Part shown: piece by piece, positions 12,001 to 32,081 of the stretch
Layout of the letters: every line of letters starts with the position of its first letter
Numbering within the stretch: position 1 is the first letter of the stretch
IMG/VR virus record: IMGVR_UViG_3300047325_000170
Coordinates: 32,001 to 96,000 of that record
From: a virus
Direction: 5' to 3' (one strand)
DNA: 64,000 nt
Notes under the pieces: generated by a model
What the model was told of the DNA's origin: nothing
The model's input: the letters and a program-made list of their open reading frames with translations, nothing else
The model's database searches: none
Program-made: the position numbers and the translations under genes

Positions 12001-15000
12001 TTGCCGACCAGAGCAGCCGCGATGCCCGCAACCTTGTACGTTTCCGCAAGCTTCGGTTGCCCTGCCGCTCCCGCAACCCCCGCCGCCGTTGTAAGACCAG
12101 CCTCGAGTAAGCCACCCGTAAGAAAGTTGATACCGGCGAGGGAGGCTTGGTACACATAGTCGGTCAGGGTCTTCGAGGGATTGGTGAACGGCGCCACCTT
12201 CCGGTAGGCGCTGATCTGCTGGGGCTGATTGATCACGTGCGTGTCAGGGTCGAGAACGTCGATGCCCTCAGGTCCATTGTCACCAATTGCGTCCCAGAAC
12301 TGGAAGAGGTAGGGGTTGCCGAAGTGGCTGATACCAATGGGGTTCTCGGCCCATGCGCCGCCTTGGCTTGCACTATAGATGTCGTGCTTGATGAGGTTCC
12401 AGAACTTCGTCCCAAGACTGTAGTCGTAGAGCTCTTCGCCGTGGGAGTTGAGCATCTGCCCAATGATTTCACGTGGCTCGTAGGTGAGATCCATCATCTC
12501 ACCGGTCGGCGCCTGACCGTGCACGAGACGGTTCCCATCAGCAAGGAGTCCCGGAAGGAAGCCGCGGTCGGGTCGGTTGATGGAGTTTGTCTCGGATTCG
12601 GCAGAGGGGATCAGCTTCGTGAGCTCGATTCCATCACCAACTGCGATGATCTGCACCCGCTCGCCGAGACCGACCTCCGCAATACGTCCATTGAAGAGGA
12701 CCGGGAATTTGGCGCCGTTTGAACCGTAACCCATGCGGATGTGGACGCGCACGCCTGGCGCAAGCATGACCTGACCTTGCTGCTTCTTGCGCTGTTCAAT
12801 TTGCTGCTGAACGACACTGTCCGTCCCGAGCAGCAGGCGGATCGGGTTGACGAATCCCTCGACCCAGCGATTGATGTTGTTGCGGATGTCGTCGGTGGCC
12901 GCAAAGACCTCGCCCATGTTGAAGCTTACTGCGCCCTTCGCCACGCTGAGTGCGGCAGTCCCGAGATTGCTGAGAACCGGGATCGTATCTCCGTTGTAGT
13001 TGTAGAGCGCTGAGAGCATATTTGCGCTCAGCTGGAACTGCGTGTAAGACGAGAGATTGCCGTAGGTGTTCATGATCTCAATGATGGCGGTATGCATCGG
13101 ATCCCGGCGATCATTGATGATGTCTATGGATTGGATAGCCTGGAGGGCATAGAGATTCGGCATGAGGTTTTGCCAGCCGATCTTCGGGCCTTCGTCCATG
13201 AGCTGAAAGACGTAGGTGGGGTAGGCTTGAACGAGCCGCCCCGTCATGTCGTGTTCCATAAGATCCCGAAGCATGGCGATCATACGCCCATGTTCGTCGA
13301 TCTGCTGTGAACCAACATCGACGGGATGGTGACTCTGAAGCGCCTGATTCAGGTAGGCTCGCGGGTCCTTCCCATCTTTTTTCTGTCCTAGGATCTCTTG
13401 TGCGGAGTCCTGGACCGCCGCCGGAAGTCCGGGGATTTTCAGCCAGGATGCCGTCCCGTAGTTCCCGGCATTGACACCATAGCTATTTTCTCCCGGGTGG
13501 GTAATCTGGACCGACTGCCCGTCGACCTGAAGCGTCGCTTGGTAGTTGCTTTGCTGCGTGACCGTGGGGGTAAACTGATTCGTAGCCGTTTGGGTGCCGT
13601 TGTTAATGGTCGGCATCGTTAGTGAGCCAACGAGATTGGTGTGGCCGCGCTGCGGACCTGATTCCCAGGCAGTCGACGGCCGCCCTTGATTCGTATTGTC
13701 GCTACCGGGTGCTGCCTCGGGAGCCGTTGCGCCCATCGCCTGAGGATCAACCCCGTAGAGACCGCCCGCCGGATGCTCATCAAAGAGAGACTGCCGAACC
13801 GCTTCGCTAACGGAGCCAGTGATGTTGAGAGCGATAGTTCCGTTCTGGTTGAGGGTGGAGATTTGGCTCGCGACCTGAGCAAGGTACGATGAGGTAGCCG
13901 CTCCGAGGGGGTTGATCGGAATGTTCAGCTTTTCGGCGAGGAGCTCGTTTGGGTAATCGATGTAGAAGTCAGGATCGACGAAGCGACCCTGGTCAGTCCA
14001 ATACTCCCAGCGCAGTTGCTGCATGGCGAGCTGCGCCTGTGCCTCACCGAGCTGCGATGGGTCGAAGATCTCTCCGTTCTGAAGAGCTGCCTGGATACGC
14101 TCGAAGGTCGGAAGCTCGAGGTCAGGATAGAGCTCGAGGTAGGCCATCTGTTCTTTTGCTTCCTGAATAGGCGCAGCCGCAAACCACGCATTGACCGGCC
14201 GACCGGTTGTATCGAAGCCATTGTTGCCCTTGTCACCGGTTGGTTGACGGGGGTCCTTGGCAGGGTTGTAGTCGTTGATATAGCGCTGCCAGAAGACATA
14301 GCGCGGATCGGTCCCGGCGCTGATGGGTCCAACTTCGCCCGAGACCCCTGAAGGCAACTGCTCGTTGATGAGCTGGGGCAGGAGCGCTGCGCCCTTCACG
14401 GCTTCAATACGGCGTTGATGACGCTCGAAAGAGATCATCTCAATCGCGACGGTAAAGATGTTGGGATAGCCCTCGACGGGTTCCGACACAATGTTCGTGA
14501 AAACGACATTATGCACGCCCATAAGGGAAGCGATCTCATTCTCAAAGCCAACAAAGCCGGCAACGAGTTCATAGCGTGCCTCGCGGGCATTGGTACGAGC
14601 GTATTCAACCATTGCCCGCACGGAGTCGAGTGCCGCGAGGGTCAGTGCGGTGAAGGTAACGGTGAAGCGAACTTCGCCCCCTCCCATGTGTTGGTAGCCC
14701 GGCGTCTCATTCGCTGGAGAGCGCACCATCACAAATGAGTTGTTGATCTCGGCCGAGATGCCGGTCATGATCAGGTCGGGTGTATCCCATGGACGCATCC
14801 GTGCCTTGGCGTCATCGGTGAAATTGGTGATTTCAGCGAGAAGGTTCTCGAGCGCTTCGTAGATCGAAAGCTTCTCACTCTGTGGCAAGATCTTCACCGC
14901 ATCGCTGAGGGCATAGGTCTGCCAGCGGTTGTACTGATCGTGAAGATCAGAGAGCCCCTTCAGCCATGCGCTGTCGACAACCGTGAATTGAAACTGGGCT

Positions 15001-15794
15001 GACATGGCGTCGAATGGTTCGCGAGTACTGATGAGGTAGGGCTGCGAAGCAGTCAGTCCATTAAAGGTCTGTTGTTCCGAGGTGGTAAGGGGGGCCGAGC
15101 TTGGAAGATCGGGCCATTTCGCACATACGCGCCACTGCCCCGGCAGCCATTCCGCATAGGCTTGCTGCCAGTACCAGCGTTGTAAGGGGTAGATGAAAGC
15201 GGAGTCAAACTGATAGGGCGGGATCGATGAACAGAAGGTGCCGATTTCGAGAGCCTTACACCACAAGACAACAGCAAGCGCGTTCGGGATCTGTTGTCCA
15301 TCCTTGGTACCGGCCCGGAGGAAGAGCCGCTCGAGCGCGAGGACATGAACCCCATTCGAATTGAGGTACGTGTTCGTGACGGGCAAGATGGGCGTGCGCT
15401 TGAATTGAGCAATCAGACTCGCGATACTGCGATTGTCGATAGGTGGCGAGCTTAAGTAGCCCCCGCTGACGCGACGATTATCGGGATTAGGATCAACTTC
15501 TCCGGTCGAGAGTCCGAAGACATCATAGGCACTCGTGACTTCAAACTCGATCTGGACGATCTTCTCCACAAAGCCGGTGGACATGACAATACCGCCCGTT
15601 GTCCGAGGGACCGGTTCGACGTGGTTGTTGGAGACATCCGTGAGAGAGATACGGTACGGCGGGACCGTCGCGGCAAAGTCTCCGATACGAAGGTAGTCTT
15701 CGTTACCGATGAGCTCCCCGTCCAAACTGCGGTCAAAGTTGATCGCGAGGAGCTGGGGGAAGTTCTCATCAGAAGGATAGCGGAGGAGAGGCAA
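9099..15794 (-). CDS. Giant baseplate hub protein with C-terminal M15-like peptidase
   Basis: Hub-like motifs RVHIRMGYG..LFNGRIAEV and GDPTVKPYD..VRKVTHHF. C-terminal YHYKGQAID...HIHI. TTG start. Confidence 0.7.
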   Translation of the reverse strand: MPLLRYPSDENFPQLLAINFDRSLDGELIGNEDYLRIGDFAATVPPYRISLTDVSNNHVEPVPRTTGGIVMSTGFVEKIVQIEFEVTSAYDVFGLSTGEVDPNPDNRRVSGGYLSSPPIDNRSIASLIAQFKRTPILPVTNTYLNSNGVHVLALERLFLRAGTKDGQQIPNALAVVLWCKALEIGTFCSSIPPYQFDSAFIYPLQRWYWQQAYAEWLPGQWRVCAKWPDLPSSAPLTTSEQQTFNGLTASQPYLISTREPFDAMSAQFQFTVVDSAWLKGLSDLHDQYNRWQTYALSDAVKILPQSEKLSIYEALENLLAEITNFTDDAKARMRPWDTPDLIMTGISAEINNSFVMVRSPANETPGYQHMGGGEVRFTVTFTALTLAALDSVRAMVEYARTNAREARYELVAGFVGFENEIASLMGVHNVVFTNIVSEPVEGYPNIFTVAIEMISFERHQRRIEAVKGAALLPQLINEQLPSGVSGEVGPISAGTDPRYVFWQRYINDYNPAKDPRQPTGDKGNNGFDTTGRPVNAWFAAAPIQEAKEQMAYLELYPDLELPTFERIQAALQNGEIFDPSQLGEAQAQLAMQQLRWEYWTDQGRFVDPDFYIDYPNELLAEKLNIPINPLGAATSSYLAQVASQISTLNQNGTIALNITGSVSEAVRQSLFDEHPAGGLYGVDPQAMGATAPEAAPGSDNTNQGRPSTAWESGPQRGHTNLVGSLTMPTINNGTQTATNQFTPTVTQQSNYQATLQVDGQSVQITHPGENSYGVNAGNYGTASWLKIPGLPAAVQDSAQEILGQKKDGKDPRAYLNQALQSHHPVDVGSQQIDEHGRMIAMLRDLMEHDMTGRLVQAYPTYVFQLMDEGPKIGWQNLMPNLYALQAIQSIDIINDRRDPMHTAIIEIMNTYGNLSSYTQFQLSANMLSALYNYNGDTIPVLSNLGTAALSVAKGAVSFNMGEVFAATDDIRNNINRWVEGFVNPIRLLLGTDSVVQQQIEQRKKQQGQVMLAPGVRVHIRMGYGSNGAKFPVLFNGRIAEVGLGERVQIIAVGDGIELTKLIPSAESETNSINRPDRGFLPGLLADGNRLVHGQAPTGEMMDLTYEPREIIGQMLNSHGEELYDYSLGTKFWNLIKHDIYSASQGGAWAENPIGISHFGNPYLFQFWDAIGDNGPEGIDVLDPDTHVINQPQQISAYRKVAPFTNPSKTLTDYVYQASLAGINFLTGGLLEAGLTTAAGVAGAAGQPKLAETYKVAGIAAALVGNTANMLNQGIPSGYGETCENVYSIYTPFSKFFREVGSFSSAVGVNYFAQQAAGVIANPYSVKTAIDNVQAKAAQGGFNPSSGQFDAPPLPDVGQTQLMGPHPPGITFNMYTKNKTCWDVISTMAQYFPPYVAAVVPFEYRSTLFFGAPYYQFRYDYQRVSAYDLGQADPGLDRFYGYPVGYKTKTFCQFHYYGSTSNLLTNTIRASDEETYTDVIAMWYNGQGYQSSRPTPKPVHQTVDRQISSAFRKTAIVNTDVLGLDVAPTKAAIIGSLGLDLVGYWAENIGIPGTDFSIAGGMGHWITEENMRQMARAILRDYQKLMYQGQVLVLGDPTVKPYDIMYLNDTYTDVRGLCGVRKVTHHFGFDVGYVTSIEPDMLCEVKGENYWSSMWAWFGGYLAADVVSLLGAKWALCQGTKQFSQSLFNFGVKVTKQNITQRIFSFLKGGSKPPPTGYELKIGGKAVSTFKPRFLTYQIRNLILDGLNRVLSGSTSVSTSVQSSFGTTASEYQQLAQNISNAVSKTRSIFGKTGVEKVSGETAAQIINEVLAEAIDENGEEILDAAIKDAIAKNFLNFTNGTFDQAVNRTAAEVIAKRGVLNFLTRESTTLTSKTLAGAGADLTEILADAFGQVGEKSIQAVVTEDLAVAGGRLAGLAAELFPILMEARIISCFNPIGLAANVIFQIIFGYAWTAISRYWDDQTSLVMVFLKYRGAELQAGLNGHSESVVLQAALPGDTSLTISDADKEKLRQLGAIQPRGDMVHATLAKGLETASPAQSVIVAPVAGIAVPTESGSVANPVTFLSGGTSYSTSSRMAIISKHQWESSLIMTELLTQQTAPPSQGVSNDIISFLNFLTQNGISVYMTAAAARSHGDLGAGTGSYHYKGQAIDIGLVSENGGPMINVAATPPAGLRLIRLAERYNVAQIGVNSYYDAGQLAELTTPAGTDVGDGTIMFIDRGTGAHIHIATRT

Positions 15795-15818: not shown

Positions 15819-18800
15819 CTACGAGCGGCCTTTCAACTGATCACTCGCGTCCTTGTCACGGTCGCGGGTCGTGCGGCGTGCGTCTTGCATATCGACGTTC
15901 ACCTGGGCCCCAATGGCGTTGCTGATCCCGGCACGGAGCGCTTCGGGGCTTGACATGTCCCCGTTCCGACTTGCACGTACCTGGATGTTGTAGCTCTGGG
16001 CCGAGCCACCGGTGTCGTTACTCATGACGCGGGTGCGGCCGCCCGTTGGGGGCTTGGGCATCTCGGGGGCGTCGCGGATCTCCCCGCTCTGTCCGAAGGT
16101 CACGGCTGCGGTTGCCAGGGCGCCTGCGCCAAGGCCGGCCATGACCCAGGGGTTCCGGAGTTTCTCCATCACCCCGCTCATTGAGAGCTTCTTTGCTATT
16201 TTAGCACCATCTTCGACCATTGAGCTAGCGTTTTGGGTGACCGGGGCCGAGATCATGTTCTCGGTGAGGTCCTTGGTCTCGGGCAGCACGGACTCTGGGA
16301 TGCTTGCCCCGATCTTGGGTTCGGTCAGAGCTTGGCTTGCTGCCTGTGCCTCTTGCATGCGCTCTTCGGTTGTTCCGGCGGCGTCGATAGCCCCACGTCC
16401 AAAGATCCGTGAGAAGATGTCAACCGCGCTCCGGCCGACTTTCTTCCCTGGGTTGGTAATAGTGCGCACCCAGTCCCCGGCATTCGCTAGGTCAAGTGGC
16501 CCGGCGCCGTTCTTCATGGCGGCTTGAGATTTCCAATTGACCGGTTCGGTAAAGGATTCAAACCAGGAGATCTCTTTGCCCCACTTGTCAAATTTCGGTT
16601 CCGCAGCCTGGCCAGTTTTCACCATGTCTGTGAAAGCCTTGAGGGCTTGGTACTTCCAGATATCCTTACCGGCTTCCATGTCCTCCTTGGCGCCCGCAAG
16701 GAAGTACTTGTCCATGTAGCTATCAACGTTCATGGAGCCAGCGCTCGTTTGCAGCAAGCCGCTTTTTTTGTCATAGAGGTCCTGCGTCTTGTCGATCACC
16801 GATGCTCCCGCCACGCCCGGGACACTCACGGGCTTGCCAACCGACTGCTGTTGAAGGAGCGTGGTGAAAGCGTAGGGGTCAAACTGATTGCCGCCCTTCA
16901 CCTTGAGGAACTCTTCACGAATGATGCCCGCGCCGGTATACTGCAGCGCTGCTAGCTCTCGTTCTTCTGGACTTGCTGCGGTGTTCTTGATCGTGTTCAT
17001 GAGCCGGTCTTGGATAGGCGTCGTCACCGCTCCGATGAGACCCTGCGCACTATCAACCTCGTGCTGCTCGAGGATCCTCTCCATCGTGCTCATCTTTAAG
17101 ATTGGGAGATTGGTATGATAGTAGTTCTCAAAGTTGGCGAAGAGCTCTGCTGTTTTGGGCAGGTTCGCTTTGATCTCTTTAAGGGCGGCTTCATGCCCTT
17201 CCCACGCTGCAACCTTGGCCGTCCATGCCGATTCGAATTGCCCGTGCAATTTCTGCATGATCGCCCGATTGATTTTCGTTCCCTCAAGCATGCCGGCAAG
17301 GACAACACGGACCTTGTCACCGTCCGAGTCACCATAGAGTGCCTTACGCAGACTGTCATGAACGTAGAGGCCAAATCCCTTGATGGTATCGTCGACATAG
17401 ACCTTTGCGCCCATACGACCGTAGATCGCATTGGGGTCGCGGTGCACGGTTGCCCAGAAGAACTCTTGTCCCCGCTCGTCTTTCAGCAAGCTTTGGCCCG
17501 GGACAGCGCCGATTTGTTTAGCAAACTCCCGAGAAACCTTGGCGCTGAAGGGTTGGAAGGACGCATCGTCCGCCCAGAGGGACTGCTGAAGGGGTGCCTT
17601 TAAGAAGCCCTTCCCGCTGAAGTCGAGGCTCTTGTAGAGGTTGTTAAGGAGACCCTTCTTGCCCTTGATCTGCGTTGCAAGCGATTGCTGGTAGGACTCA
17701 ATAGATTTATTGAGATCATCCAGGTGGGCAAGATTCTCAGGATCGATCCGAGCGCTGAGCGCAATCACGCGGTCGAGGGCGCGTTGCGATTCGGAGGGAC
17801 GGTAGCCACCGCCCTTTACGTCGGTGAGATCGGGGATCTCATCGGGGGCGTAGAGCCGCCGCCCGTTTCCAATATCGATATACTGTGCGCCACGCCCATA
17901 GCGTGCGAGGTATTCGTCCTTTGAGAGGACGTTCTTCGGTGCTTGTTCGCGTAGGGCGATCTGTTCGGCGGTCATTTCTGTTGCGCCGGTCGCATTCCCG
18001 AATTTCATCGGATTTTGGTTGGCTTCATACGCAGAGAGGTATTGGTGGAGCTTGTAGGCTCTCTTCTGAGTGGTCGGGTTAGCGAGGTAAGAGGTCTTGA
18101 GATTCTCAGCCTGGAGAAGGAGACCCTCAGCCTCGTAGGCCTTAATGTCAAAGGCCTGCATACCGGCTTCGTTCCGCTTGGGATTGAGGCGTTTGTGCTT
18201 TGCGTAGAGCGCTTCTTCCGCTGTCATGTCCGTCGTGGGCGAAGGATCATTGATGACGCGAGTGGCCAGCATCGACTGTTCATACTGCACGCGGTAGCGG
18301 TTCCCGCTCCGTGAGGTGAAGTTGGTTGTTTGGAGTAATTCCATGCCGCCGCTCGGATCGATCTTCTGTCCGAGCTCGTTCATCATGCGCTTCGCTTCAA
18401 GGGCCTTCGCCACGTTGGTCTCATCAAAGCGATGTTTGCCGGAGATCGCTCGGTTGACGACGTAGCCATTCTCGATGCTGAACTTCATACCGAGACCAAG
18501 CTGATCGAAGATCTCCTGCAACCCTTGTTGAAGAGCAAGGGCCTTCTGGGGATCCTTGCCAGCCCGCGCCATCATCATATTCATCTGACCGCGGACGAGC
18601 ATGCCTGCGCCTTCGTGCTTCTGGAGGGTCTTCACGAGTGGGACGCCAGAGAAGATCTTGACGAAGTCATCGTCCCAGGTCGTTTTCCCACCGTTGATGA
18701 CGACGGTGTTCTTCGACATATCGGCCATGATCTTCATGTTGTGAAGATTGGCCCCGGCCCCGAAGGCCTCGTTGATCTCGGGCTTCGCGATGGCCTGTTG

Positions 18801-21557
18801 TTCGTAGGCCCCCATCACCTGCATCATCTCGTCGGTCCCAAGAGTACGGACAACATTCCCCGCCTCGTCGAGCTCCTCGCCGCCAACGATGAAACCCATG
18901 CCGACATTGCGCTGGTAGGTGGGGTCTGCGAACTCCTTCCCGAGGCGGGACTCTACGCGTTGGAACTGCGTCATCGCAATCTCGTCCTCTGAATTGCGCA
19001 GGGGCACGGCATTGAACTCTTGTTGTGGTCGCGCCCAGGGATTACCACCGGGGACCACGTCTTGATAGATCGCCGCTGCGACGGGAGATCCCTGACGGCC
19101 CGCCTTATTACCAATGATCGCGAGACCCTCGACCCCCTGTCCGGGAGCGGAGCCTTGAATCAGCCGCGTGCGAATCCGCTGCAGTTGCCGGTTCTTGACG
19201 GACGTATTTGAGCCGATGGTATTGAAGATGCGATTTGCAAAGCTTCCCTCGAAGCCGCCTCTTTCATCCTCTTTGTTTAAGAACTTCTCTTGAACTGTGT
19301 CTCCGCCGGCGCTTTCATAGAGGGCTTTTGCAACGGCATTACCTTCCTTGGGTTCGATACGTCCGTCCTCTGCATTTTGAAAGAACTGCCTGAAGAACTT
19401 GTCGCGGTTGATGCGACTCTTATCGGTTGTGGCAAAAGCATAGATTGGATTGATTGTCGACTCTGGCAAGAGCAAAGCATTATGAACGAGGAGTTGTTCT
19501 TGTGTCTGAACGGCCGACGCGGAGATAGCAATCCCGGGATCCTCGGCCGTGGCATCAAGGACGCCCTTCCCGAGCTCAGACGTTGCTTGGTCAAAGAGTC
19601 CCATGTCGAGTTTGCGGACTGCGCGCTGCATGCGGCGGCCGACCGATGCGAACATGACTTCGGTGGCTGAGAAAACATGGAGTCCGCCTTGGATGCGGTT
19701 CTGCGCCGCAATCTTTCGTGCCTCGGAGTAGTTATTAAATGTCTCCGGTCTGACATGAACTGTCTGATATTTCAGTCCTTGGTTGATGAGCTCGTTATCG
19801 TCGAGGAACTCGCTTCCCCGGCCCGATTGCCGTAGGACGAGGTCACTGACGCCAAGGTACTGGCCGATATATTTGCTCCCGCCGGCCGTTTGGAAGACAC
19901 CGTTGACGTCTTCAACGGGAAGGAAGAACTGAGCGGCCCCGCCGGTTCCTTTTGAGATGGCAGCGTTCTCGTGGGGAGCAATGTGAACCCAGACACCGAA
20001 TCCTTGGCCACCGCCCTTGAGAGGGTTCGACTCTTGGAAGGAATAGGAGACCTTCCACTTCGCTGCACGCGGGACCGATTTTCCGTCCTTCTGCTCAAAG
20101 CTTTGAAAGAACTTGATACGTTCCTGAAGATAGTCGAAGGCGGCTTCACGGTTTCCGCCGATGTTGCCGTTCCCGAAGGCGACGATGCCTGTTTTCTTCT
20201 CAAAGGTATCAAGGGCCCGAAGCCGCGCGCGTACATGGGCGGCTTCATCGAACTCATTGACCTTGCCGGTCCACACTTTCTTGCTACCTTCTTGCTTCAT
20301 CTCGAAGACTTCGCGTGAGGTAAGCTGCGCGATGTGGGACTCAAGACCACCGGGGATCTCTTCCGTACCCATCTTGAGGCCCATATGCTGGCCTTGTTGT
20401 TCAAGGTTTTCAAAGTGCCGGCGGAAGAAGCCAAAGGCTCCCTCTCCGGTGAAGGCTTCGCGCCGTAAGACATCCGCCCCGTGGGGCATGCCAAGGCCAT
20501 TCACTGAGGTTTGCATCGCCTCGAGAACAGGGTTCATAAAGCGCTGCCACATCTTCTTGCGCAGAGCAGCGCGCATCGCTGGATGCTGGGCCGGATCTCC
20601 CTTGATCCGGCCATTCTTTACCAGTCGTTGCCATTGGTTCTCAAAGGCGGTCTCGAAGGTGTTGTAGATTGCCCGGCTCATCGCTACATTCTGGGGAGCG
20701 ACGAAGCCCTGCATCACCCGGTTATAGAGGCCCTGTGCATCCTTCGTGTAGACGCCGCCGATCCCGCGACTGCGGATCTTCGGGACGATCCCGCCATCGT
20801 CGGTTGTGACCGATCCGCGCTCGAGCAGTGCCTTGAAGCCGTCGGGATTGAGGAATTCGTGGGGCGACTTCTCATCATTCGTCACGCCACTGAGGGCCAT
20901 CATCGTGCGCTGATGAGTCATGATGAGATCCTGGAAGCGGATCTGGCGCGCGGTCGCCTTGGTCTGTGCCATGTTAAACATGAGCTGACCGACATCTTCG
21001 GGGTTCATGGTTGCAGAGAAGCTCTTGCCAAGCTTTCCTATGGCGCCCTGGGGGACGATGTTCATCGCCACCTGTCCGCTCTCGGTGAGCGAGGAGCTAA
21101 CCTTATAGACTCCAAACTGCTTGGTCAACTCGGGGTCCATGAAGCCAGCAGCACGTAGAGAATCCGTCATGACGTAATAGCCAGAAGGAAGCTCACCTTG
21201 CGCGATCTTGGCAGCGGTCTGAGCGCCGGCTGTTTTCATCTCCTCAAGGCGTCCCGCAGCATTGGCGGCCCTCTCCGCCTTCGTCTCGGGAGTGAAACGG
21301 AAGTCACGTAAGGCAACTCCCATGTCCATGTCGCGGATCTTCCGCCGCGCCGAGGTGAACTCAGGGAGATCCTTGGTGGAGGGAACCTTTGTGATCATGG
21401 CTTGCCAGACATTTGTGCCGCCCTCTTTAACAAACTTCCAGAGGTTTGCCGTCGCCAGATAGCCGCTGCCCCGCATCTTCATATAGACCCCACTCTTGGT
21501 GGTGTCTGCGCCTTGGGCTGGAGCGTAATTCTTAACTACCTTGTCGTAGAGAGACAT
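15819..21557 (-). CDS. Single-chain two-barrel (beta/beta'-like) RNA polymerase, probably virion-packaged
   Basis: beta'-like SLATQIKGKKG...K.LDFSG, VHRDP and LYGDSDGDKV (DxDGD at 17316-17330). Weaker beta-like QQEFNAVPL, YEQQAI and MKIMADMSKNTV upstream. No cysteine found in 1912 aa. Confidence 0.82.
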   Translation of the reverse strand: MSLYDKVVKNYAPAQGADTTKSGVYMKMRGSGYLATANLWKFVKEGGTNVWQAMITKVPSTKDLPEFTSARRKIRDMDMGVALRDFRFTPETKAERAANAAGRLEEMKTAGAQTAAKIAQGELPSGYYVMTDSLRAAGFMDPELTKQFGVYKVSSSLTESGQVAMNIVPQGAIGKLGKSFSATMNPEDVGQLMFNMAQTKATARQIRFQDLIMTHQRTMMALSGVTNDEKSPHEFLNPDGFKALLERGSVTTDDGGIVPKIRSRGIGGVYTKDAQGLYNRVMQGFVAPQNVAMSRAIYNTFETAFENQWQRLVKNGRIKGDPAQHPAMRAALRKKMWQRFMNPVLEAMQTSVNGLGMPHGADVLRREAFTGEGAFGFFRRHFENLEQQGQHMGLKMGTEEIPGGLESHIAQLTSREVFEMKQEGSKKVWTGKVNEFDEAAHVRARLRALDTFEKKTGIVAFGNGNIGGNREAAFDYLQERIKFFQSFEQKDGKSVPRAAKWKVSYSFQESNPLKGGGQGFGVWVHIAPHENAAISKGTGGAAQFFLPVEDVNGVFQTAGGSKYIGQYLGVSDLVLRQSGRGSEFLDDNELINQGLKYQTVHVRPETFNNYSEARKIAAQNRIQGGLHVFSATEVMFASVGRRMQRAVRKLDMGLFDQATSELGKGVLDATAEDPGIAISASAVQTQEQLLVHNALLLPESTINPIYAFATTDKSRINRDKFFRQFFQNAEDGRIEPKEGNAVAKALYESAGGDTVQEKFLNKEDERGGFEGSFANRIFNTIGSNTSVKNRQLQRIRTRLIQGSAPGQGVEGLAIIGNKAGRQGSPVAAAIYQDVVPGGNPWARPQQEFNAVPLRNSEDEIAMTQFQRVESRLGKEFADPTYQRNVGMGFIVGGEELDEAGNVVRTLGTDEMMQVMGAYEQQAIAKPEINEAFGAGANLHNMKIMADMSKNTVVINGGKTTWDDDFVKIFSGVPLVKTLQKHEGAGMLVRGQMNMMMARAGKDPQKALALQQGLQEIFDQLGLGMKFSIENGYVVNRAISGKHRFDETNVAKALEAKRMMNELGQKIDPSGGMELLQTTNFTSRSGNRYRVQYEQSMLATRVINDPSPTTDMTAEEALYAKHKRLNPKRNEAGMQAFDIKAYEAEGLLLQAENLKTSYLANPTTQKRAYKLHQYLSAYEANQNPMKFGNATGATEMTAEQIALREQAPKNVLSKDEYLARYGRGAQYIDIGNGRRLYAPDEIPDLTDVKGGGYRPSESQRALDRVIALSARIDPENLAHLDDLNKSIESYQQSLATQIKGKKGLLNNLYKSLDFSGKGFLKAPLQQSLWADDASFQPFSAKVSREFAKQIGAVPGQSLLKDERGQEFFWATVHRDPNAIYGRMGAKVYVDDTIKGFGLYVHDSLRKALYGDSDGDKVRVVLAGMLEGTKINRAIMQKLHGQFESAWTAKVAAWEGHEAALKEIKANLPKTAELFANFENYYHTNLPILKMSTMERILEQHEVDSAQGLIGAVTTPIQDRLMNTIKNTAASPEERELAALQYTGAGIIREEFLKVKGGNQFDPYAFTTLLQQQSVGKPVSVPGVAGASVIDKTQDLYDKKSGLLQTSAGSMNVDSYMDKYFLAGAKEDMEAGKDIWKYQALKAFTDMVKTGQAAEPKFDKWGKEISWFESFTEPVNWKSQAAMKNGAGPLDLANAGDWVRTITNPGKKVGRSAVDIFSRIFGRGAIDAAGTTEERMQEAQAASQALTEPKIGASIPESVLPETKDLTENMISAPVTQNASSMVEDGAKIAKKLSMSGVMEKLRNPWVMAGLGAGALATAAVTFGQSGEIRDAPEMPKPPTGGRTRVMSNDTGGSAQSYNIQVRASRNGDMSSPEALRAGISNAIGAQVNVDMQDARRTTRDRDKDASDQLKGRS

Positions 21558-24500
21558 TAGGCCGCCTGCTGAATCTGCATGTTCACTTGATGTTGCTGAG
21601 CATTATTGGGATAGAGCTGGATATCGATATCGCGAAGCCCCATACCATCGAGGACGCGATGGAGGTTCGCTTTGATGTTGCCGGGGGTCTCGCGGAAGGG
21701 ACGGATGTCTTTGATCCCAAGCTCACTGACTCGCTCTTCATCCTGCGGCCAGAAGCCTTGGGAGGTCATATCGAGACCCTCTTGCTTCGTGACAACCAGA
21801 CGGTAGTCGTCAAGTGAGTTCTCAGCCTGCCAACCATTCCAGTCCGCGGGCGGCAGGTAATGGTGCTTGAAGTACTCGATGAGTTCTGGCTTCTCATCGA
21901 CCTTTAGGCCATAGGCGGCTTGCAAGAAACGGCGCTCGTTCTTGGGCACCATCTTGAGGATCTCTTTCCGCTCAGGCCCCGGGGCCTTGAGGAACGCCTG
22001 GAAGAACTCACGCTCCTTGGGGTCAAGTGAGAGCAAGACCTTTTGGAGATCGCTACCTGGCTTCGCACCATAGAGTGTCGTCTGCGCGACCTGACGATAC
22101 TGGATCGCAAGGATATCATCACGGGTGAGCTTCAGCTCCTTGCGATAGGACTGCAGCTCGGAGATCTCTTGGTTGATCTCGTGCAAGCGCTTCGCTTGCT
22201 TCTTCTTGTCGCCCTTAATGATGATGCGCCGCTTCTCTTGCCGTAGTTGGGAGATGCGGTGCTTGCGATCATCGCCTTCGCGTTCGTAGCGGTCGATGAT
22301 CGCGCCGATGTCTTTGTGCTCATGTTTGAGAACGTAGGCGCGCGTCTTCTCGTAGAGCCCCTCGTACTTCATGTACTTAAGAATGTCGAAGTACTCTTTG
22401 GTCTCGCGCTCTTTCTTACGATACTCCGGTATGGGATCTTGTGACACCTTATGGCTGAAGGCAAGCGCGCCGGCAATCGCCATCGAAGCACCCATCAAGA
22501 TGGCGCGCGACTTCAACTGGATCTTCCCAAGCTTGAAGCCAAATTTGGTGTTGGGGAGACGCTCAATGAGCTTCCCGCCGTAGAGGGGGCCAACCCCGAG
22601 GAAGTACCCGATAGCACCGGCAACCGCCATACCGGCGATGCCTTGTGCGGCAGCTGATTCAAACGAGGGGAAGATGTAATCCCGGAAAGGGTGCTTCCAG
22701 TCTTGCCAATCCTTACCGTAGACTTGCGTACGCTTATAGAGTTCGATAGGTGAGTCAAGGGCCATGTACTTATTGTGAAGCAGGGTGATCGGCAGGTGCC
22801 CAATGCGCTCAAGGGCTCCGGCCCAGGCGATCTCGTTGCTCGTGTACTGTGCATGCATACCAGCGGGCGAACTATCTTGGGTCTCTGAGCCGTAGTCCTG
22901 ATCGATAGCTTCGCGGTTGAGCATCCGCCCATGGCTAAAGACGACAGCGTGGATGGTGTTGAGGGTATCCTTCGAGACACGCTGCGCTTGATCGTGAGCA
23001 TAGCCGATCTTCACCGTACGCCCCGGCCCGAGATTCTGGCTGAGCCAGGTGGTCGCATCGGCATCGCTGCGGACGTGAACACCCGCAAGGCGGATCGGAT
23101 TGTCGGGGTGCTCGAGCGTCGTGAAGGTATTATTGTCGATCATCTTATCGATATGGACGGTCTCATAGTCGAGCTGTGCATACCGGAGATGATAGGGTGC
23201 CATCGTTACGCGGTGCTTGCGCTGCGTAACCTGTTCCTTGACGGTCTTGATGCGTGCTCGATCTTCGTCGGAGAGGACGCCTTCGGGGAGATGCACGAGA
23301 TAGTCGCGGTAGCGCCGGTACTGTGAGGACCAGGGCGCCACATCACCGAGGATCTCGAGCTTCGTGACATCATCGTAGAACTGGCCTTGGCTCCAAAGGC
23401 CTTCTTTCGTCTCCTTGGCGATCTGCTTGCGGACATCGTCGACCTTTGCAATCGTCTTATCGTAGAGATCCTGATCGAAGGTCAGCTGCGCGGAACGCTG
23501 CTCATTTGGATTGTCGCGGTTGACGTAGACGATGCCGCCCTGCTTTGCGCCAAGCTCGGCCATGTCCAGGTTGAGTTGTTCGCGATGGCGTGCATCAATC
23601 GTGTCATGCAGTTCGCGATAACGCTTCTGCGAGAGGGTGTGGATCTCAATTGGGTTGCCGTCCTTGGTGACAAAGTCGACGGTTCCGGAGATCCCAAGCT
23701 TCTTGTCATCGTAACTGACGTCACGCTTGCCACCCGGCGACTCGCCGAGAAGCTCATGCTTGATCTTCTCATGCAGCTCTCCACCGCGTTCAGCGATTTC
23801 CTGTGAGTAGGCATAGAAGGGCTCGTGGTCTCCCGTTAAGAGTCCATAGAGTCCGTCGCGAGAGTAGCCGATCTGCGTGCTGCGTAGCTTGAGGTCCATG
23901 GCTGGTATTCCATGGAGTTTCTCGTAGGCCGCACCTGGCAGGCGCGCTTCACCGTTCGGGATCGTGACATAGGGGTCGCCGTGGAGGAAGTCGAGGAAGT
24001 AGGCGGGGTCTTCACCGCCCTGCCCCGGCAACCAGGTGGGCATTGTATTCCGGATCGGATTGTATTCGGTGTTGGAGTGATAGCGGTGGGGCAGGAAACG
24101 ACGGAAGGCTTCTGAGAGCCCCGGTGTCGGCAGCATGCCGCCGGTGTTCCAGTTATCCCAGTACTGCCGCTCGAACGAGGTCATCCGTCCTGCTGATTGC
24201 AGGGTCGGCAAGTTGGAGTAGGGATAGTCCACGGTGCTCGCCGCGGCGAAGCCGTAGATACCGCCGATTTCCGTTAAGGAGTAGTAGCCAAGACCGGCCT
24301 GATAGCGTGGATCGTTGGGATTGATGAGTCGCTTGAGGGAGCGGGGATCATTCGGATCCTGCGACTTGAAGAGCCCCGGCGCTTGCGTGCCTTCGAGCAT
24401 ACGCCCCGGCGTGAAGCGCTGCGCTGCCTTGAGCTTCTCGTTGGACTCACGGATCTTTTGGCGTGTCTTCGCCTTGGCCGAACCGTAGGGCGCAATCGCC

Positions 24501-26743
24501 CGCGCACCCTTCCCGTAGCTGCCGCGCTGGACGCCTTCGTCATAGCCCGCATCGCTGTCGTCAGCGTCGTCTTGGGTATCGTCATTGATCGCAGCAATCG
24601 CCCGATCAGAACCGGGCAGGCCCACCGCGCCCATCGGCAGGATCTGGCCCGAGGCGGTGACAAAGCCGGTGAGTTCTTGGTTAGCAGCCTTTTCTTTGAT
24701 TTGCTCGTTGAGGGTGCGAAGATCTCCGCGGTACTTGGGATTGCGTTCGCCCTGGTGGGGGCCAGAGATCAAATACGGAAGATCCTCCGCATGCATGTAT
24801 TTCGTCGGCTTGAGGATCGGGCCGAGAATTGGGTTGAGGAGGGCGCCCCAGGGTGAAGTGGGCTCAAAGAGCGGGGCGGAGATCGGATAGGGGCGGTCCT
24901 TGTAGTGCTTCTTCTCGTAGTGATAGCGATCAAAGAGGAAGTGCTGCGCCCAACTGAAGGGATGCGTCGGTGTGGGGAGGGCGGCATTAGCGTAGTATTC
25001 ATCAACTGAACCGAAAAGGGTGTCGGTCTTGGTGATGTCGCCAGCTAAGGCTTGACGATGAGCATTGGGAGCAAAGTACTGGATGCGCTCGCCGCGGAAC
25101 GGCGTGCTCGATCCGAAGCTCCACCAGCGGCCCTTGCGGACCGGGACATAGCCACTGTCCTGTTGCTCCTTGAGTTCCTCTTGGCTGAGGCCAACCTTCG
25201 CATCGACGAAGGGGTGGGCGATGTGAGAGAGGACACCGCCGGAGAGCTCATCGACATGCTTGAGCCACGGACTGATCCCAAGCTTGTCCTTAAGTCCCGC
25301 CCACCAGAGCTCACCCTTATCCTTGGCGAGCTGTGCTTGATCGGTCGGGCGGCGCCCCATGAGCTTGCCGAGTTCATCGTTGAGATAGCCTGCGTAGAAG
25401 ATCCCCGCCGCGATAGGCAAGGCCCGCTTGAGCATGACATTCGCAAAGTAGGCGGTCGGACCCTTAAAGGCTAGCTTCCCGAGCTTGAACTCGGTGGATG
25501 ATCCCGACATCGCAAGCCATGGGAAGAGGCCATTGTAGGCCATGCCCGTGTTGATACGCTCGAGGAGATGATAGGCGGCAAAGGTGCCGGTGTTGATCTC
25601 GGTTCCGCGGGTTGCCCCGAAGAACATGTTCTTGAGACCAGTGGGCGTGAACTCCATGGCCCGTGCCACCCCGAAGGGCAGCTGATCAGCAAGGCGTCGT
25701 GCCTCGGGAAGATCCTCGACTGCAATGTTTCCGAAGCGGGACTGCCAGAACTTCTCGCGGCCCTCTTTGCTCCAGATTGCCGCGCCGCGCTCATTGAGGC
25801 CAACGTCGAAGAAGCGTTGCGCACGAGCTCGTAAGCTGGTGTTTCCGGGATCGCGAATCGCAGCGATCTTCTCGAGCTTCTCATTGAGCGTCTCAAGGTT
25901 GAAAAGCCGCACCCCTTCTTCCTGAGAGATTCCCCGCTCTTCGCGGATAACATCTCCCCGGATCCTTGAGATGAGTTTTTGATTGCGACTAATGCGAGCA
26001 TGGATATTGCCGACATCATAGCTCTCGCCGAGGAGATCGCCACGCATGCGCTCGATGGCGTTCTTCTTCTCGCCAATCCCCGCCTTACCATAGAGCCAGT
26101 ACTTGCCTTCAATGGTATGGATCTTGCTCCACAGTAGCTGTGGAGGCGCCCCTTCGCCCGGGCTATCAAGAAGGGCTTGAACGACGTGAACCTTACCACC
26201 GACGAAGTAGGCACGGGCGTGCTCTGAGATCCCGCGCTTCTGGAGTTCTTCAGGGGTGAGGAGGCCGAGCTTGCCGATTCTCCCGAGGGCTTGGAACTGA
26301 GAGGTCGACTTGCCGGCCGTCCCATACATCTCACGGAGTTCAGGACCGAAGGCGAGCTTATCGGCGATCTGGAGCGGCAGGAAGGTCTGAGACGCTTTCT
26401 GCCACGCGGTCATCAGCGGCGAGCGGCTAATGAACATCCCCAGGGCATGGATGCTATTGGCTTCAGGGGCCTTGCCCTGCAGGTGGTTGTAAAGGAGATT
26501 GGTTTCGATGGTCCGCCGCTGCATGGCACGCAGGGCAGTCGTTTGCTTCATCCAGCCAGGTGGCGTGAAGGCGAGGCCGCCCTGTTGGAAGGCGACCTGC
26601 ATCTCCGCAGCAAGGGTCTTATCAGCCCACGGCTTGAGGCCCTTGCCCAACGCAAAAAGACCGCCGACAGTAGCTGCTCCGGTGAGGAGCGAACGGCGGC
26701 GGTCGTCTTCGCTGTTGGGGGGGTTGTAGCCGTACTCAGCCAC
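21557..26743 (-). CDS. Large Cys-free virion protein in the tape-measure position with PD-(D/E)XK-like and SNase-like domains
   Basis: G.ELHE...ISGTVD...IEIHT...QLNLDM...GGIVYVNRD, and IDNNT...IRLAGV...LNREAI. Several Gly/Ala hydrophobic segments. Follows the tail chaperones. Confidence 0.65.
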   Translation of the reverse strand: MAEYGYNPPNSEDDRRRSLLTGAATVGGLFALGKGLKPWADKTLAAEMQVAFQQGGLAFTPPGWMKQTTALRAMQRRTIETNLLYNHLQGKAPEANSIHALGMFISRSPLMTAWQKASQTFLPLQIADKLAFGPELREMYGTAGKSTSQFQALGRIGKLGLLTPEELQKRGISEHARAYFVGGKVHVVQALLDSPGEGAPPQLLWSKIHTIEGKYWLYGKAGIGEKKNAIERMRGDLLGESYDVGNIHARISRNQKLISRIRGDVIREERGISQEEGVRLFNLETLNEKLEKIAAIRDPGNTSLRARAQRFFDVGLNERGAAIWSKEGREKFWQSRFGNIAVEDLPEARRLADQLPFGVARAMEFTPTGLKNMFFGATRGTEINTGTFAAYHLLERINTGMAYNGLFPWLAMSGSSTEFKLGKLAFKGPTAYFANVMLKRALPIAAGIFYAGYLNDELGKLMGRRPTDQAQLAKDKGELWWAGLKDKLGISPWLKHVDELSGGVLSHIAHPFVDAKVGLSQEELKEQQDSGYVPVRKGRWWSFGSSTPFRGERIQYFAPNAHRQALAGDITKTDTLFGSVDEYYANAALPTPTHPFSWAQHFLFDRYHYEKKHYKDRPYPISAPLFEPTSPWGALLNPILGPILKPTKYMHAEDLPYLISGPHQGERNPKYRGDLRTLNEQIKEKAANQELTGFVTASGQILPMGAVGLPGSDRAIAAINDDTQDDADDSDAGYDEGVQRGSYGKGARAIAPYGSAKAKTRQKIRESNEKLKAAQRFTPGRMLEGTQAPGLFKSQDPNDPRSLKRLINPNDPRYQAGLGYYSLTEIGGIYGFAAASTVDYPYSNLPTLQSAGRMTSFERQYWDNWNTGGMLPTPGLSEAFRRFLPHRYHSNTEYNPIRNTMPTWLPGQGGEDPAYFLDFLHGDPYVTIPNGEARLPGAAYEKLHGIPAMDLKLRSTQIGYSRDGLYGLLTGDHEPFYAYSQEIAERGGELHEKIKHELLGESPGGKRDVSYDDKKLGISGTVDFVTKDGNPIEIHTLSQKRYRELHDTIDARHREQLNLDMAELGAKQGGIVYVNRDNPNEQRSAQLTFDQDLYDKTIAKVDDVRKQIAKETKEGLWSQGQFYDDVTKLEILGDVAPWSSQYRRYRDYLVHLPEGVLSDEDRARIKTVKEQVTQRKHRVTMAPYHLRYAQLDYETVHIDKMIDNNTFTTLEHPDNPIRLAGVHVRSDADATTWLSQNLGPGRTVKIGYAHDQAQRVSKDTLNTIHAVVFSHGRMLNREAIDQDYGSETQDSSPAGMHAQYTSNEIAWAGALERIGHLPITLLHNKYMALDSPIELYKRTQVYGKDWQDWKHPFRDYIFPSFESAAAQGIAGMAVAGAIGYFLGVGPLYGGKLIERLPNTKFGFKLGKIQLKSRAILMGASMAIAGALAFSHKVSQDPIPEYRKKERETKEYFDILKYMKYEGLYEKTRAYVLKHEHKDIGAIIDRYEREGDDRKHRISQLRQEKRRIIIKGDKKKQAKRLHEINQEISELQSYRKELKLTRDDILAIQYRQVAQTTLYGAKPGSDLQKVLLSLDPKEREFFQAFLKAPGPERKEILKMVPKNERRFLQAAYGLKVDEKPELIEYFKHHYLPPADWNGWQAENSLDDYRLVVTKQEGLDMTSQGFWPQDEERVSELGIKDIRPFRETPGNIKANLHRVLDGMGLRDIDIQLYPNNAQQHQVNMQIQQAA

Positions 26744-26755
26744 GTAGGAAGTCCT

Positions 26756-27502
26756 TTACGATCTGTTCTGTTTGAGACTTGCCATCAGTTGCTGACGACG
26801 TTGTGCTTTCTCGAACTTTGGTAGGACTTCACTGAGCGGCTTGAGGGCTGCTCGATCTGCGCCGTCGATGACCCCGAGGGTTGATCCACTCTCGTCGGCG
26901 ACCTGTTGATTCTTGTTGAGGCGCTCTTGAAGTTCGGCCATGCGTTCTTTGTTATTGAGGCCACGCGGTGGCTTGATTGGTTTCTCTTCTTCTTTCTTAC
27001 TCTGCTGGATCTTCAGCCCCGGCGTCGTCGCTTCAAGGATCCAACAAGCCCGTGCATAGGCATCGAAGAGTTGATCGTGACTCCAATCACTGTAGCGGGC
27101 GAAAAGCCCCCCGCCATCAAAGGCATAGTCGATCATCGTCTCCATCTGAGCTTCAAAGTCTTCAACGATACGCCCCTGGTAGAAGCCGAGGCGTCCTTCC
27201 ATATCGATGATGCCGGAAGAATTGAGGACCTGAGCGCAGATAGCATCCGGTACACCGGCCGGTCCATCTTGGACTGCGGGGGCATCTGCCTTCCATCCCT
27301 CGGGCCAGAGGAGCGTTGTCTCGCAGACTTCTTCGGCGCGTTCGAGCTCGTCTTCGATATGAATAATAGCTCGGTACTCACGCCGCGAGAGTCGCCGGTA
27401 GATGTAGATCTGCTCGACGTGCTGGAATAAGAAAATAGCCCCGTAGTCAGCAATCCAACTACGGAAGCGTTCCTCCGGCGGCGCTTGCGGCGCTGCCTCC
27501 AC
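26756..27502 (-). CDS. Tail assembly chaperone-like protein 2
   Basis: YIYRRLSRREY...LLWP...PAGVP..I...SG, paralogous to the upstream gene. Confidence 0.6.
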   Translation of the reverse strand: MEAAPQAPPEERFRSWIADYGAIFLFQHVEQIYIYRRLSRREYRAIIHIEDELERAEEVCETTLLWPEGWKADAPAVQDGPAGVPDAICAQVLNSSGIIDMEGRLGFYQGRIVEDFEAQMETMIDYAFDGGGLFARYSDWSHDQLFDAYARACWILEATTPGLKIQQSKKEEEKPIKPPRGLNNKERMAELQERLNKNQQVADESGSTLGVIDGADRAALKPLSEVLPKFEKAQRRQQLMASLKQNRS

Positions 27503-27505
27503 TCC

Positions 27506-27982
27506 TTAGAGCTGAATGCTCTCCGCGACGGGTTGGAAAGCGGAGTAGGCATAGAACTCTTGCATCACGACTTGGACAGCACCGGCCGGCATGTTCTGCA
27601 ACACGGTGCGGTCCGAGCAATCCGGGAAGAGACAGATCTTCGTGAAGAGGGTATCTTCGCGTTGATCGGGATCTTCGATAGCGGAAATAAGCTTCTGAAC
27701 GGCCTTCCACTCAAGGCGCGTCATCGTGCGATAGACACATCCACTGCCATCGGCGAAGAGCACGCAGAGCACCTTGCTGTGAGGATACTTAAGCTTGATT
27801 TCCTCGACCTGAGAGCGCGTGGGGCCGCCTTCATAGAGAGGCTCATCCTGACCGAGCGTCTCAAGGACGCTGGCGGTCTTCGGTGGCTCTTCGGCAACGA
27901 CGGGGGCAACGACGGGGAATTCTTCAGCGAAGGGAATTGCATCGAGGGCAGCTTGCTGTTCGGCGGTTAACTCTTCAGACAA
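27506..27982 (-). CDS. Tail assembly chaperone-like protein 1
   Basis: Acidic 158 aa right after the tube genes. CVYRTMTRLEW...CLFP...PAGAV. Confidence 0.65.
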   Translation of the reverse strand: MSEELTAEQQAALDAIPFAEEFPVVAPVVAEEPPKTASVLETLGQDEPLYEGGPTRSQVEEIKLKYPHSKVLCVLFADGSGCVYRTMTRLEWKAVQKLISAIEDPDQREDTLFTKICLFPDCSDRTVLQNMPAGAVQVVMQEFYAYSAFQPVAESIQL

Positions 27983-28012: not shown

Positions 28013-28714
28013 TTACAAGCTTACGATAGAGCGATTGGGCGCATTGATATCAGTAGCGATGAACTGGAACATCTCTTGGATGTTTTCACCAGAGAGGTCG
28101 ATGCGTTGGCCGACCGACATCAGGCTGACTCCCTCAATCGTACGGACGCGTCCGCTATTACGAGCAGTGATGTCAATACTGTCGATATCTCCGTAGACGA
28201 GCAAGATCTGAAAGTTCGTATTAGTGAAGTAAGGAACACGCGAGAGATCGGTTTGCCCTTGGTTGATGATCGTCTCGAGATTGCCCCAGTTGATGTTCTT
28301 TTGATTCTGGATCCACTGTTGATAGCCGGTCGGGTCCGTCTGGGGGTCCGGCATCGCCGTTGGGGCATAGGGATTCGGTTGAAGGGTCTGCGAGGCGAGC
28401 GGCGCCGCTTCTTGGTCATTGATGCTATTGACCAACTCATGGAGGTAATCGCCCGGCCGCAGGTTGATACAGAAAGACCCCTGGACGATACGCGTCCCTG
28501 GGATAATCCTATTAGCAGTATAGGATGCGTAGGAATAGATTGGGTATTGGTTTTCGGTCAACGCGCATTGAAACTCACAGATTTCGTCGATGTAATTGCC
28601 AGCCAAGAAGAGCGAGACGTCAACCCCGGAGAAGTATTCAACAGGATAGACTTCGTTGTAGGCCGGTGTGTAGGGGTTGACCTGCGCCCCGCGGTAGGGA
28701 GTGATGAAGGACAT
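28013..28714 (-). CDS. Tail tube paralogue 3 (tube initiator-like)
   Basis: YFSGVDV...PIYSY...GTRIVQGSF, homologous to the 29466 ORF. Confidence 0.7.
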   Translation of the reverse strand: MSFITPYRGAQVNPYTPAYNEVYPVEYFSGVDVSLFLAGNYIDEICEFQCALTENQYPIYSYASYTANRIIPGTRIVQGSFCINLRPGDYLHELVNSINDQEAAPLASQTLQPNPYAPTAMPDPQTDPTGYQQWIQNQKNINWGNLETIINQGQTDLSRVPYFTNTNFQILLVYGDIDSIDITARNSGRVRTIEGVSLMSVGQRIDLSGENIQEMFQFIATDINAPNRSIVSL

Positions 28715-31969: not shown

Positions 31970-32081
31970 GTCACTCTCTCCTTGAGAGGAGATCAACAAA
32001 CTCTAACTTACCCTGCATCTAGCGAACAGGCTCTTCAGCCCTAGCGCTCAGGTAATCTTGCGTGTACCTCTGGAGAGAGGC

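Follow-up and report, generated by a model that had tools for sequence, protein, structure and literature searches.

What occupies the tail tube of a giant contractile-tailed phage, and what measures its length, when the proteins encoded at the tape-measure position look like enzymes? This question is raised by a tail gene cluster in a 64,000-nucleotide stretch of viral DNA (IMG/VR record IMGVR_UViG_3300047325_000170, positions 32,001 to 96,000 of that record; hereafter the window, whose numbering is used for all coordinates of this phage). The window comes from a 111-kb viral contig, which represents about 70% of the genome and includes the whole structural module. Between a pair of tail chaperones and the baseplate hub, two giant proteins, P0001 and P0002, are encoded in place of a recognizable tape measure. 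A preliminary description made from the sequence had reported 3640 consecutive cysteine (Cys)-free residues here, and its coordinates, gene order and residue count were all correct. Fold comparison now indicates that P0002 is a single-chain RNA polymerase with a predicted intact active site, and the locus is probably a tail-lumen and ejection module from which this polymerase, seated in the tape-measure slot, and P0001 are shot into the host. The two proteins are as follows.

21557..26743, minus strand: P0001, 1728 aa, Cys-free, homologue of the virion protein gp145 of Bacillus phage 0305phi8-36
15819..21557, minus strand: P0002, 1912 aa, Cys-free, in the tape-measure slot, at the position of gp146 of 0305phi8-36

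The stop codon of the P0001 gene overlaps the start codon of the P0002 gene (TAATG), and the two are thus predicted to be translationally coupled.

Sequence searches gave no hint of what P0002 is. No match to it was found by tblastn among 50,697 phage records, a hidden Markov model (HMM) of its family found no polymerase among the PDB sequences, and the ESM Atlas returned nothing informative. The polymerase identity was revealed by fold comparison only, using an AlphaFold2 (AF2) model of residues 801-1600 built from a 7-sequence alignment. Three regions of the protein were distinguished.

18018..19049, minus strand: P0002 residues about 837-1180, β/Rpb2-like double-psi barrel region, with VIA-align matches to second-largest RNA polymerase (RNAP) subunits
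17154..18017, minus strand: P0002 residues about 1181-1468, β'/Rpb1-like barrel with GK.GL, HR.P and DSDGD motifs
15870..16148, minus strand: P0002 residues 1804-1896, C-terminal hydrophobic segment and tail module, common to gp146 and to gp095 of Bacillus phage WH1

The best 50 VIA-align matches of the model were all second-largest RNAP subunits (Z 12.3-12.9, root-mean-square deviation about 3.7 Å over about 195 residues), and the matches to this first barrel (model residues 37-380) spanned cellular, plastid, poxvirus, African swine fever virus, phiKZ and AR9 polymerases. The best Foldseek matches were all β'/Rpb1 chains, with the AR9 non-virion polymerase at the top (7s01_d, E 2e-4, probability 1.0), and model residues 381-668 aligned to the largest subunits Rpb1/RpoA' with VIA-align Z scores of 8.0-8.7 over 156-233 residues. 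The β-type barrel contains two conserved basic residues, the Lys pair K942 and K949 (nt 18711-18734), present in six of six aligned sequences, and the β'-type barrel contains a DxDxD loop, which reads DSDGD (residues 1410-1414, nt 17316-17330). These fold matches and motifs therefore suggest that P0002 is a fusion of a β-type and then a β'-type subunit in one chain, whose active site is predicted to be intact.

The P0002 family is tiny, comprising six homologues among 1.84 billion representatives, with 24-37% identity. The five full-length or core-bearing homologues contain no Cys and keep the DxDGD loop (in the variants DSDGD, ADFDGD and NADFDGD, preceded by the GK.GL and HR.P motifs), and the sixth, P0006, ends before the loop. 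Retention of the Lys pair, the Arg-x-Pro motif and the three Asp at such low identity is the pattern predicted by selection on catalysis. For the metagenomic homologues P0003-P0008, related loci were not found in viral or metagenome contigs; the longest contig was 211,787 bp for both P0004 and P0011, and 28,851 bp for both P0005 and P0009. The preliminary description had called both giant proteins enzyme-bearing, which agrees with the folds found in each, but it had missed the two-barrel RNA polymerase in the 1912-residue protein. A multisubunit virion polymerase of the phiKZ type, an idea that had come from the size of the hub and the DxDGD motif, was rejected, since a single chain contains the two barrels and the structural genes are like those of the 0305phi8-36 lineage.

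The second feature common to P0001 and P0002 is the absence of Cys. When Cys content was compared across the ORFs (open reading frames) of the window, none was found in the 3640 residues of the two proteins, versus 96 in the 16,124 residues of the other 28 large ORFs (0.60%); at this background rate, the probability of zero Cys in 3640 residues is 3.6e-10. As the preliminary description had said, the neighbouring proteins do contain Cys, with 4 and 3 residues in the chaperones, 10 in the hub and 6 in the sheath. The counts in related pairs, in P0002 homologues and in control proteins are given below.

0305phi8-36 gp145 and gp146: 0 Cys in 4467 residues (genome average 0.78%)
Moorella phage MTATph1 pair: 0 Cys in 3258 residues
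Acinetobacter phage ME3 pair: 0 Cys in 2866 residues
Bacillus phage WH1 pair: 0 Cys in 4540 residues
P0002 homologues: 0 Cys in five of six; 1 Cys in P0006, a 678-aa fragment
lambda H: 0 Cys in 853 residues
P2 T: 1 Cys in 815 residues
P23-45 gp96: 0 Cys in 5002 residues
N4 virion polymerase (gp50): 0 Cys in 3500 residues
T7 gp15: 0 Cys in 747 residues
T7 gp16: 0 Cys in 1318 residues
T7 gp14: 1 Cys in 196 residues

The ejected or lumen proteins used as controls are a small, hand-picked sample; fibres, portals, terminases and DNA polymerase of the control phages contain Cys. In the P0001 family, 72 of the 85 homologues have no Cys, and all nine with at least 7 Cys carry intein or Hint domains. 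The Cys residues of these nine lie mostly within the insertions or at their edges, with two exceptions, in which they lie mostly in regions BLAST-aligned to Cys-free homologues. An ordinary Cys content of the homologues, which the preliminary description had named as evidence that would speak against its inference of ejected cargo, was not the rule in either family.

Absence of Cys across both families as well as in lambda H, gp96, the N4 virion polymerase and T7 gp15 and gp16, all established ejected or lumen proteins, therefore supports the lack of Cys as a general marker of proteins stored in or passing through the tail channel, and with it the inference of ejected cargo. The cause suggested in the preliminary description, passage through an oxidising cell envelope, was not supported in that form: the Cys-free pair also occurs in phages of Bacillus, Paenibacillus and the anaerobe Moorella, and gp96 of a Thermus phage is Cys-free. 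Phages with the trait infect Gram-positive, anaerobic and thermophilic hosts, so its specific cause is not an oxidising periplasm, and the constraint looks like a general one for proteins held in or moved through the tail channel. A possible reason for excluding Cys is that cross-links by disulfides or metals would block the exit and refolding of a densely stored and partly unfolded protein. Zero Cys in very long virion proteins could be a cheap criterion for predicting from sequence which proteins are ejected.

As a separate observation, the gp145-type gene has been invaded by inteins repeatedly (Hint and LAGLIDADG carriers: P0027, P0036, P0039, P0044, P0049, P0064, P0083, P0092 and P0093), and nearly all Cys of the family are attributable to inteins.

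Gene order and homology place the phage in the lineage of the giant contractile-tailed Bacillus phage 0305phi8-36. In 0305phi8-36, the order is sheath, tube, tube paralogue, gp142, chaperonins gp143/144, gp145, gp146 ("hypothetical tape measure protein") and hub gp147, and according to its record, mass spectrometry identified gp145 and gp146 in the virion. The arrangement of chaperones, gp145-like protein, second giant protein and hub is common to 0305phi8-36, MTATph1, ME3 and WH1; the gp145-like protein has 1949 aa in MTATph1, 1263 aa in ME3 and 2025 aa in WH1. The gp143/144 pair was described as a version of lambda's G/GT chaperones encoded by two genes and gp147 as a homologue of T4 gp27 and P2 gpD, while gp146 was assigned as the ruler mainly from tail length and is fast-diverging; sequences of relatives can be aligned only over about the final 60 residues (Hardies et al. 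2007, PMC2147016).

The locus in the window resembles that of 0305phi8-36 in gene order, in its two-gene chaperone, in the homology of the gp145-type protein and the hub, in the C-terminal module of gp146 and in the absence of Cys from gp145 and gp146. P0001 shares 30% identity with gp145 over 1473 aa (599 bits) at the same gene position, indicating full-length homology, and many of its 85 homologues are encoded on contigs of ~200 kb. The C-terminal module of P0002 was matched to gp146 by BLASTP (gp146 residues 2408-2515), by the family HMM (E 8e-6 to 1.6e-5) and by hhalign, and to the corresponding module of WH1 gp095 by the family HMM (domain E 2e-6). Different from P0002, gp146 (2537 aa) lacks a DxDxD loop, and no similarity to the P0002 core could be detected in it. 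In hhalign and HMM comparisons, only the C-terminal module was matched in gp146 and nothing in the Moorella slot protein, and gp146 was not picked up when the family profile was run against the whole 0305phi8-36 record. The possibility that gp146 and the Moorella slot protein are degenerate polymerases was rejected, as no relaxed motif was found in either. With 1309 aa, the MTATph1 slot protein, which lacks the polymerase loop, is short, and it is separated from the hub by an insertion of three small ORFs and a transposase gene (19767-23097 of the analysed segment).

Polymerase-like slot proteins were found in two cultured relatives, where their annotation goes no further than virion structural or hypothetical protein. 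In WH1 (vB_BceM_WH1), gp095 occupies the same slot with 2515 aa, no Cys and NRYP...ADHDGD at residue 1996, and matches the P0002-family HMM at the barrel and the C-terminal module. In ME3 (vB_AbaM_ME3), gp036 occupies the same slot with 1603 aa, no Cys and REP...GDHDQD at the aligned place; of the two, only WH1 gp095 is detectable by the family HMM, and ME3 gp036 is assigned here by fold and motif. When BFVD was searched with the P0002 core by Foldseek, the best match was a "minor tail protein" of the uncultured siphovirus ctnpt50 (E 1.5e-8), followed by chains of 1258 aa (E 1.5e-7) and 802 aa (E 5.5e-5), the lengths of the second halves of WH1 gp095 and ME3 gp036; these two chains were assigned by size, and that of ME3 additionally by organism name. 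Another ME3 protein also has a polymerase-like fold (A0A172Q0S6, 798 aa, E 3e-3 in BFVD), and ctnpt50 encodes a separate "RNA-dependent RNA polymerase" besides its minor tail protein. These pairs look like the virion and non-virion polymerase pairs of the P23-45 kind.

P0001, the partner of the polymerase, was modelled with AF2 over residues 529-1728 from a 33-sequence alignment. The model is compact and multidomain, with no rod (predicted local distance difference test score (pLDDT) 73.6, predicted template modelling score (pTM) 0.68), and three parts of it stand out.

23396..23899, minus strand: P0001 residues 949-1116, PD-(D/E)xK fold, lambda-exonuclease/Cas4-like (VIA-align, Foldseek; phrog_1706, E 2e-10)
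22832..23173, minus strand: P0001 residues 1191-1304, staphylococcal-nuclease/Tudor-SN-like OB fold (Z 10.8 to 1sta_A; Tudor-SN chains; Foldseek SNase)
22439..22651, minus strand: P0001 residues about 1365-1435, Gly/Ala-rich hydrophobic segments, then a helical C-terminal region (hydropathy peak at 1369-1387)

The first domain gave VIA-align Z scores of 15.2 (3syy_A), 14.6 (Cas4 4ic1_A) and 13.9, in alignments of 147-170 residues at about 3.1 Å. Its catalytic residues are incomplete, with D ... E-I-H for ExK, no Tyr of the QxxxY motif and no Fe-S cysteines; gp145 of 0305phi8-36 retains D-I-K at the position aligned to E-I-H. With E-I-H in place of ExK, the PD-(D/E)xK domain of P0001 is therefore probably inactive. 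It is an insertion, absent in most P0001 homologues as judged from their consensus. In the SNase-like region, the segment IRLAGVHVRS has His and Ser at the places of the Ca-ligand Asp and the catalytic Glu, as judged by eye from the sequence only, and Pfam PF00565 is present in some homologues. From these substitutions in both domains, nucleic-acid binding appears more likely than cleavage as the role of the P0001 nuclease folds. The hydrophobic segments have low pLDDT in the model and are flanked by long helices.

Does either protein look like a ruler? The statement of the preliminary description that no ORF shows the helical repeats of a classical tape measure was borne out. Neither P0001 nor P0002 has internal repeats or an 11-residue aromatic periodicity, their helix propensity is 1.02-1.04 versus 1.065-1.08 for lambda H, P2 T and P23-45 gp96, and the AF2 models of both, covering residues 529-1728 of P0001 and 801-1600 of P0002, are mixed alpha/beta rather than mostly helical and extended. 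Both genes lie between the chaperone pair and the hub, with P0002 at the exact position of gp146, and residues 1804-1896 of P0002 provide the C-terminal hydrophobic segment and hub-proximal end of a tape measure. A search of the 111-kb contig for a tape-measure gene elsewhere yielded no other ruler candidate. One further giant ORF was considered.

38251-48171, minus strand: 3306-aa ORF between the capsid and neck genes, β- and Gly/Pro-rich, 11 Cys

Pfam assigned no domain to this ORF, its PHROG hits were only marginal, and tblastn against the 50,697 phage records returned no match. Its β- and Gly/Pro-rich composition and 11 Cys led to its rejection as a ruler, and its product may be a very large protein of the surface or of a fibre. 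The tail of 0305phi8-36, about 486 nm long, corresponds to 0.19 nm per residue for gp146 alone and to 0.11 nm per residue for gp145 and gp146 together; for P23-45, with a 5002-residue gp96 and an 800-nm tail, the value is roughly 0.16 nm per residue, which neither 0305phi8-36 ratio equals.

The sequences and models show the gene order and the homologies, predicted folds with conserved catalytic residues, and a lack of Cys throughout the families; a virion location and ejection of both proteins, polymerase activity of P0002 and any part that they may play as a ruler are inferred, and we consider a tail-lumen and ejection module the probable function of the locus. In such a module, one or both giant proteins would be held extended by the chaperones, the C-terminus of P0002 would dock in the hub, and the tube would grow around both proteins. 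On contraction, both would exit through the tube unfolded, and their hydrophobic segments would insert into the membrane. P0002 would then refold at the cytoplasmic face and transcribe the first phage genes on the incoming DNA, while P0001 may hold or shield the DNA end.

The same two proteins could be ejected from another store. In the manner of the T7 core or the N4 polymerase, both might be cargo kept in the capsid, with the length of the tail set by the tube and sheath themselves or by some gene beyond the recovered portion of the genome. Such storage would suit the predicted compact, globular and multidomain P0001 and the lack of ruler-like repeats or composition in either protein, and the capsid-stored N4 gp50 and T7 gp15/16 are also Cys-free. 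It does not account for the position of the two genes, which lie in the conserved tape-measure interval from chaperones to hub in every relative examined, nor for the C-terminal module that P0002 has in common with the assigned tape measure of 0305phi8-36, and the complete structural module has no other ruler candidate. We thus regard capsid storage as unlikely.

A polymerase encoded in a tail operon need not be a tail protein either. 0305phi8-36 has, in addition to gp146, a separate YonO-like single-subunit polymerase at 208026-211766 (minus strand), with GGADTDGDKV and 10 Cys (PMC7824862). It was not found in WH1, ME3, MTATph1 or the 111-kb contig, so that it occurs only in 0305phi8-36, a relative whose slot protein lacks the DxDxD loop; in this small sample, the YonO-like and slot polymerases may have a complementary distribution. 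Phage single-subunit two-barrel enzymes of the YonO type are usually non-virion (PMC7824862). With its seemingly intact active site, P0002 might likewise be an ordinary non-virion RNA polymerase that is made late, remains unpackaged and acts in the producing cell. The features of P0002 itself leave this only a slim chance, as it bears the C-terminal module of the virion protein gp146 and appears translationally coupled to a gp145-type virion protein, the core-bearing members of its family all have zero Cys versus 10 in the free-standing YonO-like enzyme, and expression from a late operon fits packaging rather than early transcription.

It is very improbable that P0002 or P0001 is a purely structural ruler or channel former whose polymerase and nuclease folds are inactive relics: although the P0001 nuclease folds look inactive (E-I-H; SNase catalytic positions not conserved, by eye) and gp146 and the Moorella protein, in the same slot, lack a DxDxD loop, every P0002 homologue retains, where it covers them, the Lys pair, the Arg-x-Pro motif and all three Asp, and Arg-x-Pro and the three Asp occur in WH1 gp095 too (NRYP...ADHDGD).

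Several points nevertheless weigh against the tail-lumen and ejection module. P0001 and P0002 of this phage are known from genes and predicted folds alone, confidence in the P0002 model is only moderate (pLDDT 60.6), and the homology between P0002 and gp146 is confined to about 100 C-terminal residues. A polymerase is not universal in the slot either, as the DxDxD loop is missing from gp146 and from the Moorella protein. A folded polymerase of ~200 kDa cannot fit the tube lumen and therefore would have to be stored unfolded or elsewhere, a storage puzzle that is also unsolved for P23-45, and the predicted compactness of P0001 (pTM 0.68) is not suggestive of a rod in the lumen. Moreover, a second (non-virion) polymerase and promoters were not identified in the contig, about 70% complete. 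The module could be taken one step further: the lumen of this lineage may have no helical ruler at all, with two unfolded enzymes setting the tail length and then forming a membrane machine for transcription and DNA entry, and with Cys exclusion as a universal signature. We put this forward tentatively and as rather doubtful; if true, strict Cys exclusion would be predictive for every phage protein that travels through the tail channel.

All genes in the P0001/P0002 region are on the minus strand. In that direction, terminase, portal, protease, major capsid protein, the 3306-aa ORF and neck genes come first, followed by a sheath paralogue, the sheath, two tube paralogues, a 233-aa gene and the chaperone pair, and then by P0001, P0002, the 2231-aa hub-lysin and the baseplate and fibre genes. 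The tail genes around P0001 and P0002 are as follows.

33009-34085, minus strand: sheath paralogue, one of two sheath paralogues
30290..31999, minus strand: tail sheath, 569 aa (phrog_16991, E 6e-67), 6 Cys
29466-30236, minus strand: tail tube, 256 aa (phrog_9206, E 1e-45), matching the gp140/141 pair
28714-29364, minus strand: tube paralogue, 216 aa (phrog_9206, E 1e-34), matching the gp140/141 pair
27506..27982, minus strand: tail chaperone 1, 158 aa (phrog_29362, E 3e-7), counterpart of gp143 by position, 4 Cys
26756..27502, minus strand: tail chaperone 2, 248 aa (phrog_29362), counterpart of gp144 by position, 3 Cys
9099..15794, minus strand: baseplate hub with lysin domains, 2231 aa (phrog_20474, E 1e-142), counterpart of gp147, 10 Cys

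Residues 83-134 of chaperone 1 are paralogous to residues 34-83 of chaperone 2, and this common domain is C-terminal in one protein and N-terminal in the other, as in the gp143/144 arrangement. By sequence, the two are thus predicted to be a two-gene G/GT-like pair without a frameshift. No Pfam domain was recognised in P0001, P0002, the hub or either chaperone. Sheath and tube are each present as two paralogues, likewise in 0305phi8-36 and MTATph1. Just downstream of the hub (7383-8630, minus strand), a separate 415-aa protein carries an SLT lytic transglycosylase domain together with clustered Cys residues (222, 226-228).

Among known systems, the closest likeness to P0002 is found in gp96 of phage P23-45, in which the N-terminal 1200 of 5002 residues are an active virion polymerase that transcribes the pre-early genes and is proposed to transcribe the first genes as DNA enters (Chaban et al. 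2024, PMC10770324). Both are giant Cys-free proteins in the tape-measure slot with a DxDGD two-barrel polymerase and membrane segments. They differ in architecture. The polymerase of gp96 is N-terminal, with DFDGD at 779 of 5002 residues, and is followed by about 3800 ruler residues with a metallopeptidase, whereas the loop of P0002 is at 1410 of 1912 residues (74%), near the hub-proximal module at the C-terminus, with only about 500 residues after it, no Pfam peptidase and no long helical ruler. No significant match between the P0002-family HMM and gp96 was found, and gp96 chains were absent among the fold-search matches listed; the two may nevertheless be related. In the window, the polymerase is preceded by a giant Cys-free partner with nuclease folds, which distinguishes the locus from that of P23-45. 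One part of the supplement to a survey of two-barrel polymerases (PMC10770324) lists neither the tail-slot proteins of WH1, ME3 and 0305phi8-36 nor any sequence of the DSDGD type.

N4 gp50 and T7 gp14-16 resemble the pair in the window in being large tail-ejected proteins that are Cys-free or nearly so, and gp50 is, moreover, a virion polymerase transcribing early genes. Different from the location proposed here, those proteins are stored in the capsid of short-tailed phages, and gp50 is a T7-like single-subunit polymerase, whose fold is unrelated to the two-barrel type. The locus raises the question of how a long tail is measured when the slot protein is an enzyme, and its lineage includes cultured, tractable Bacillus and Acinetobacter phages. 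P23-45, the single documented case of a virion RNA polymerase linked to a tape measure, has a non-contractile tail; the polymerase predicted in P0002 would extend this case to giant phages with contractile tails.

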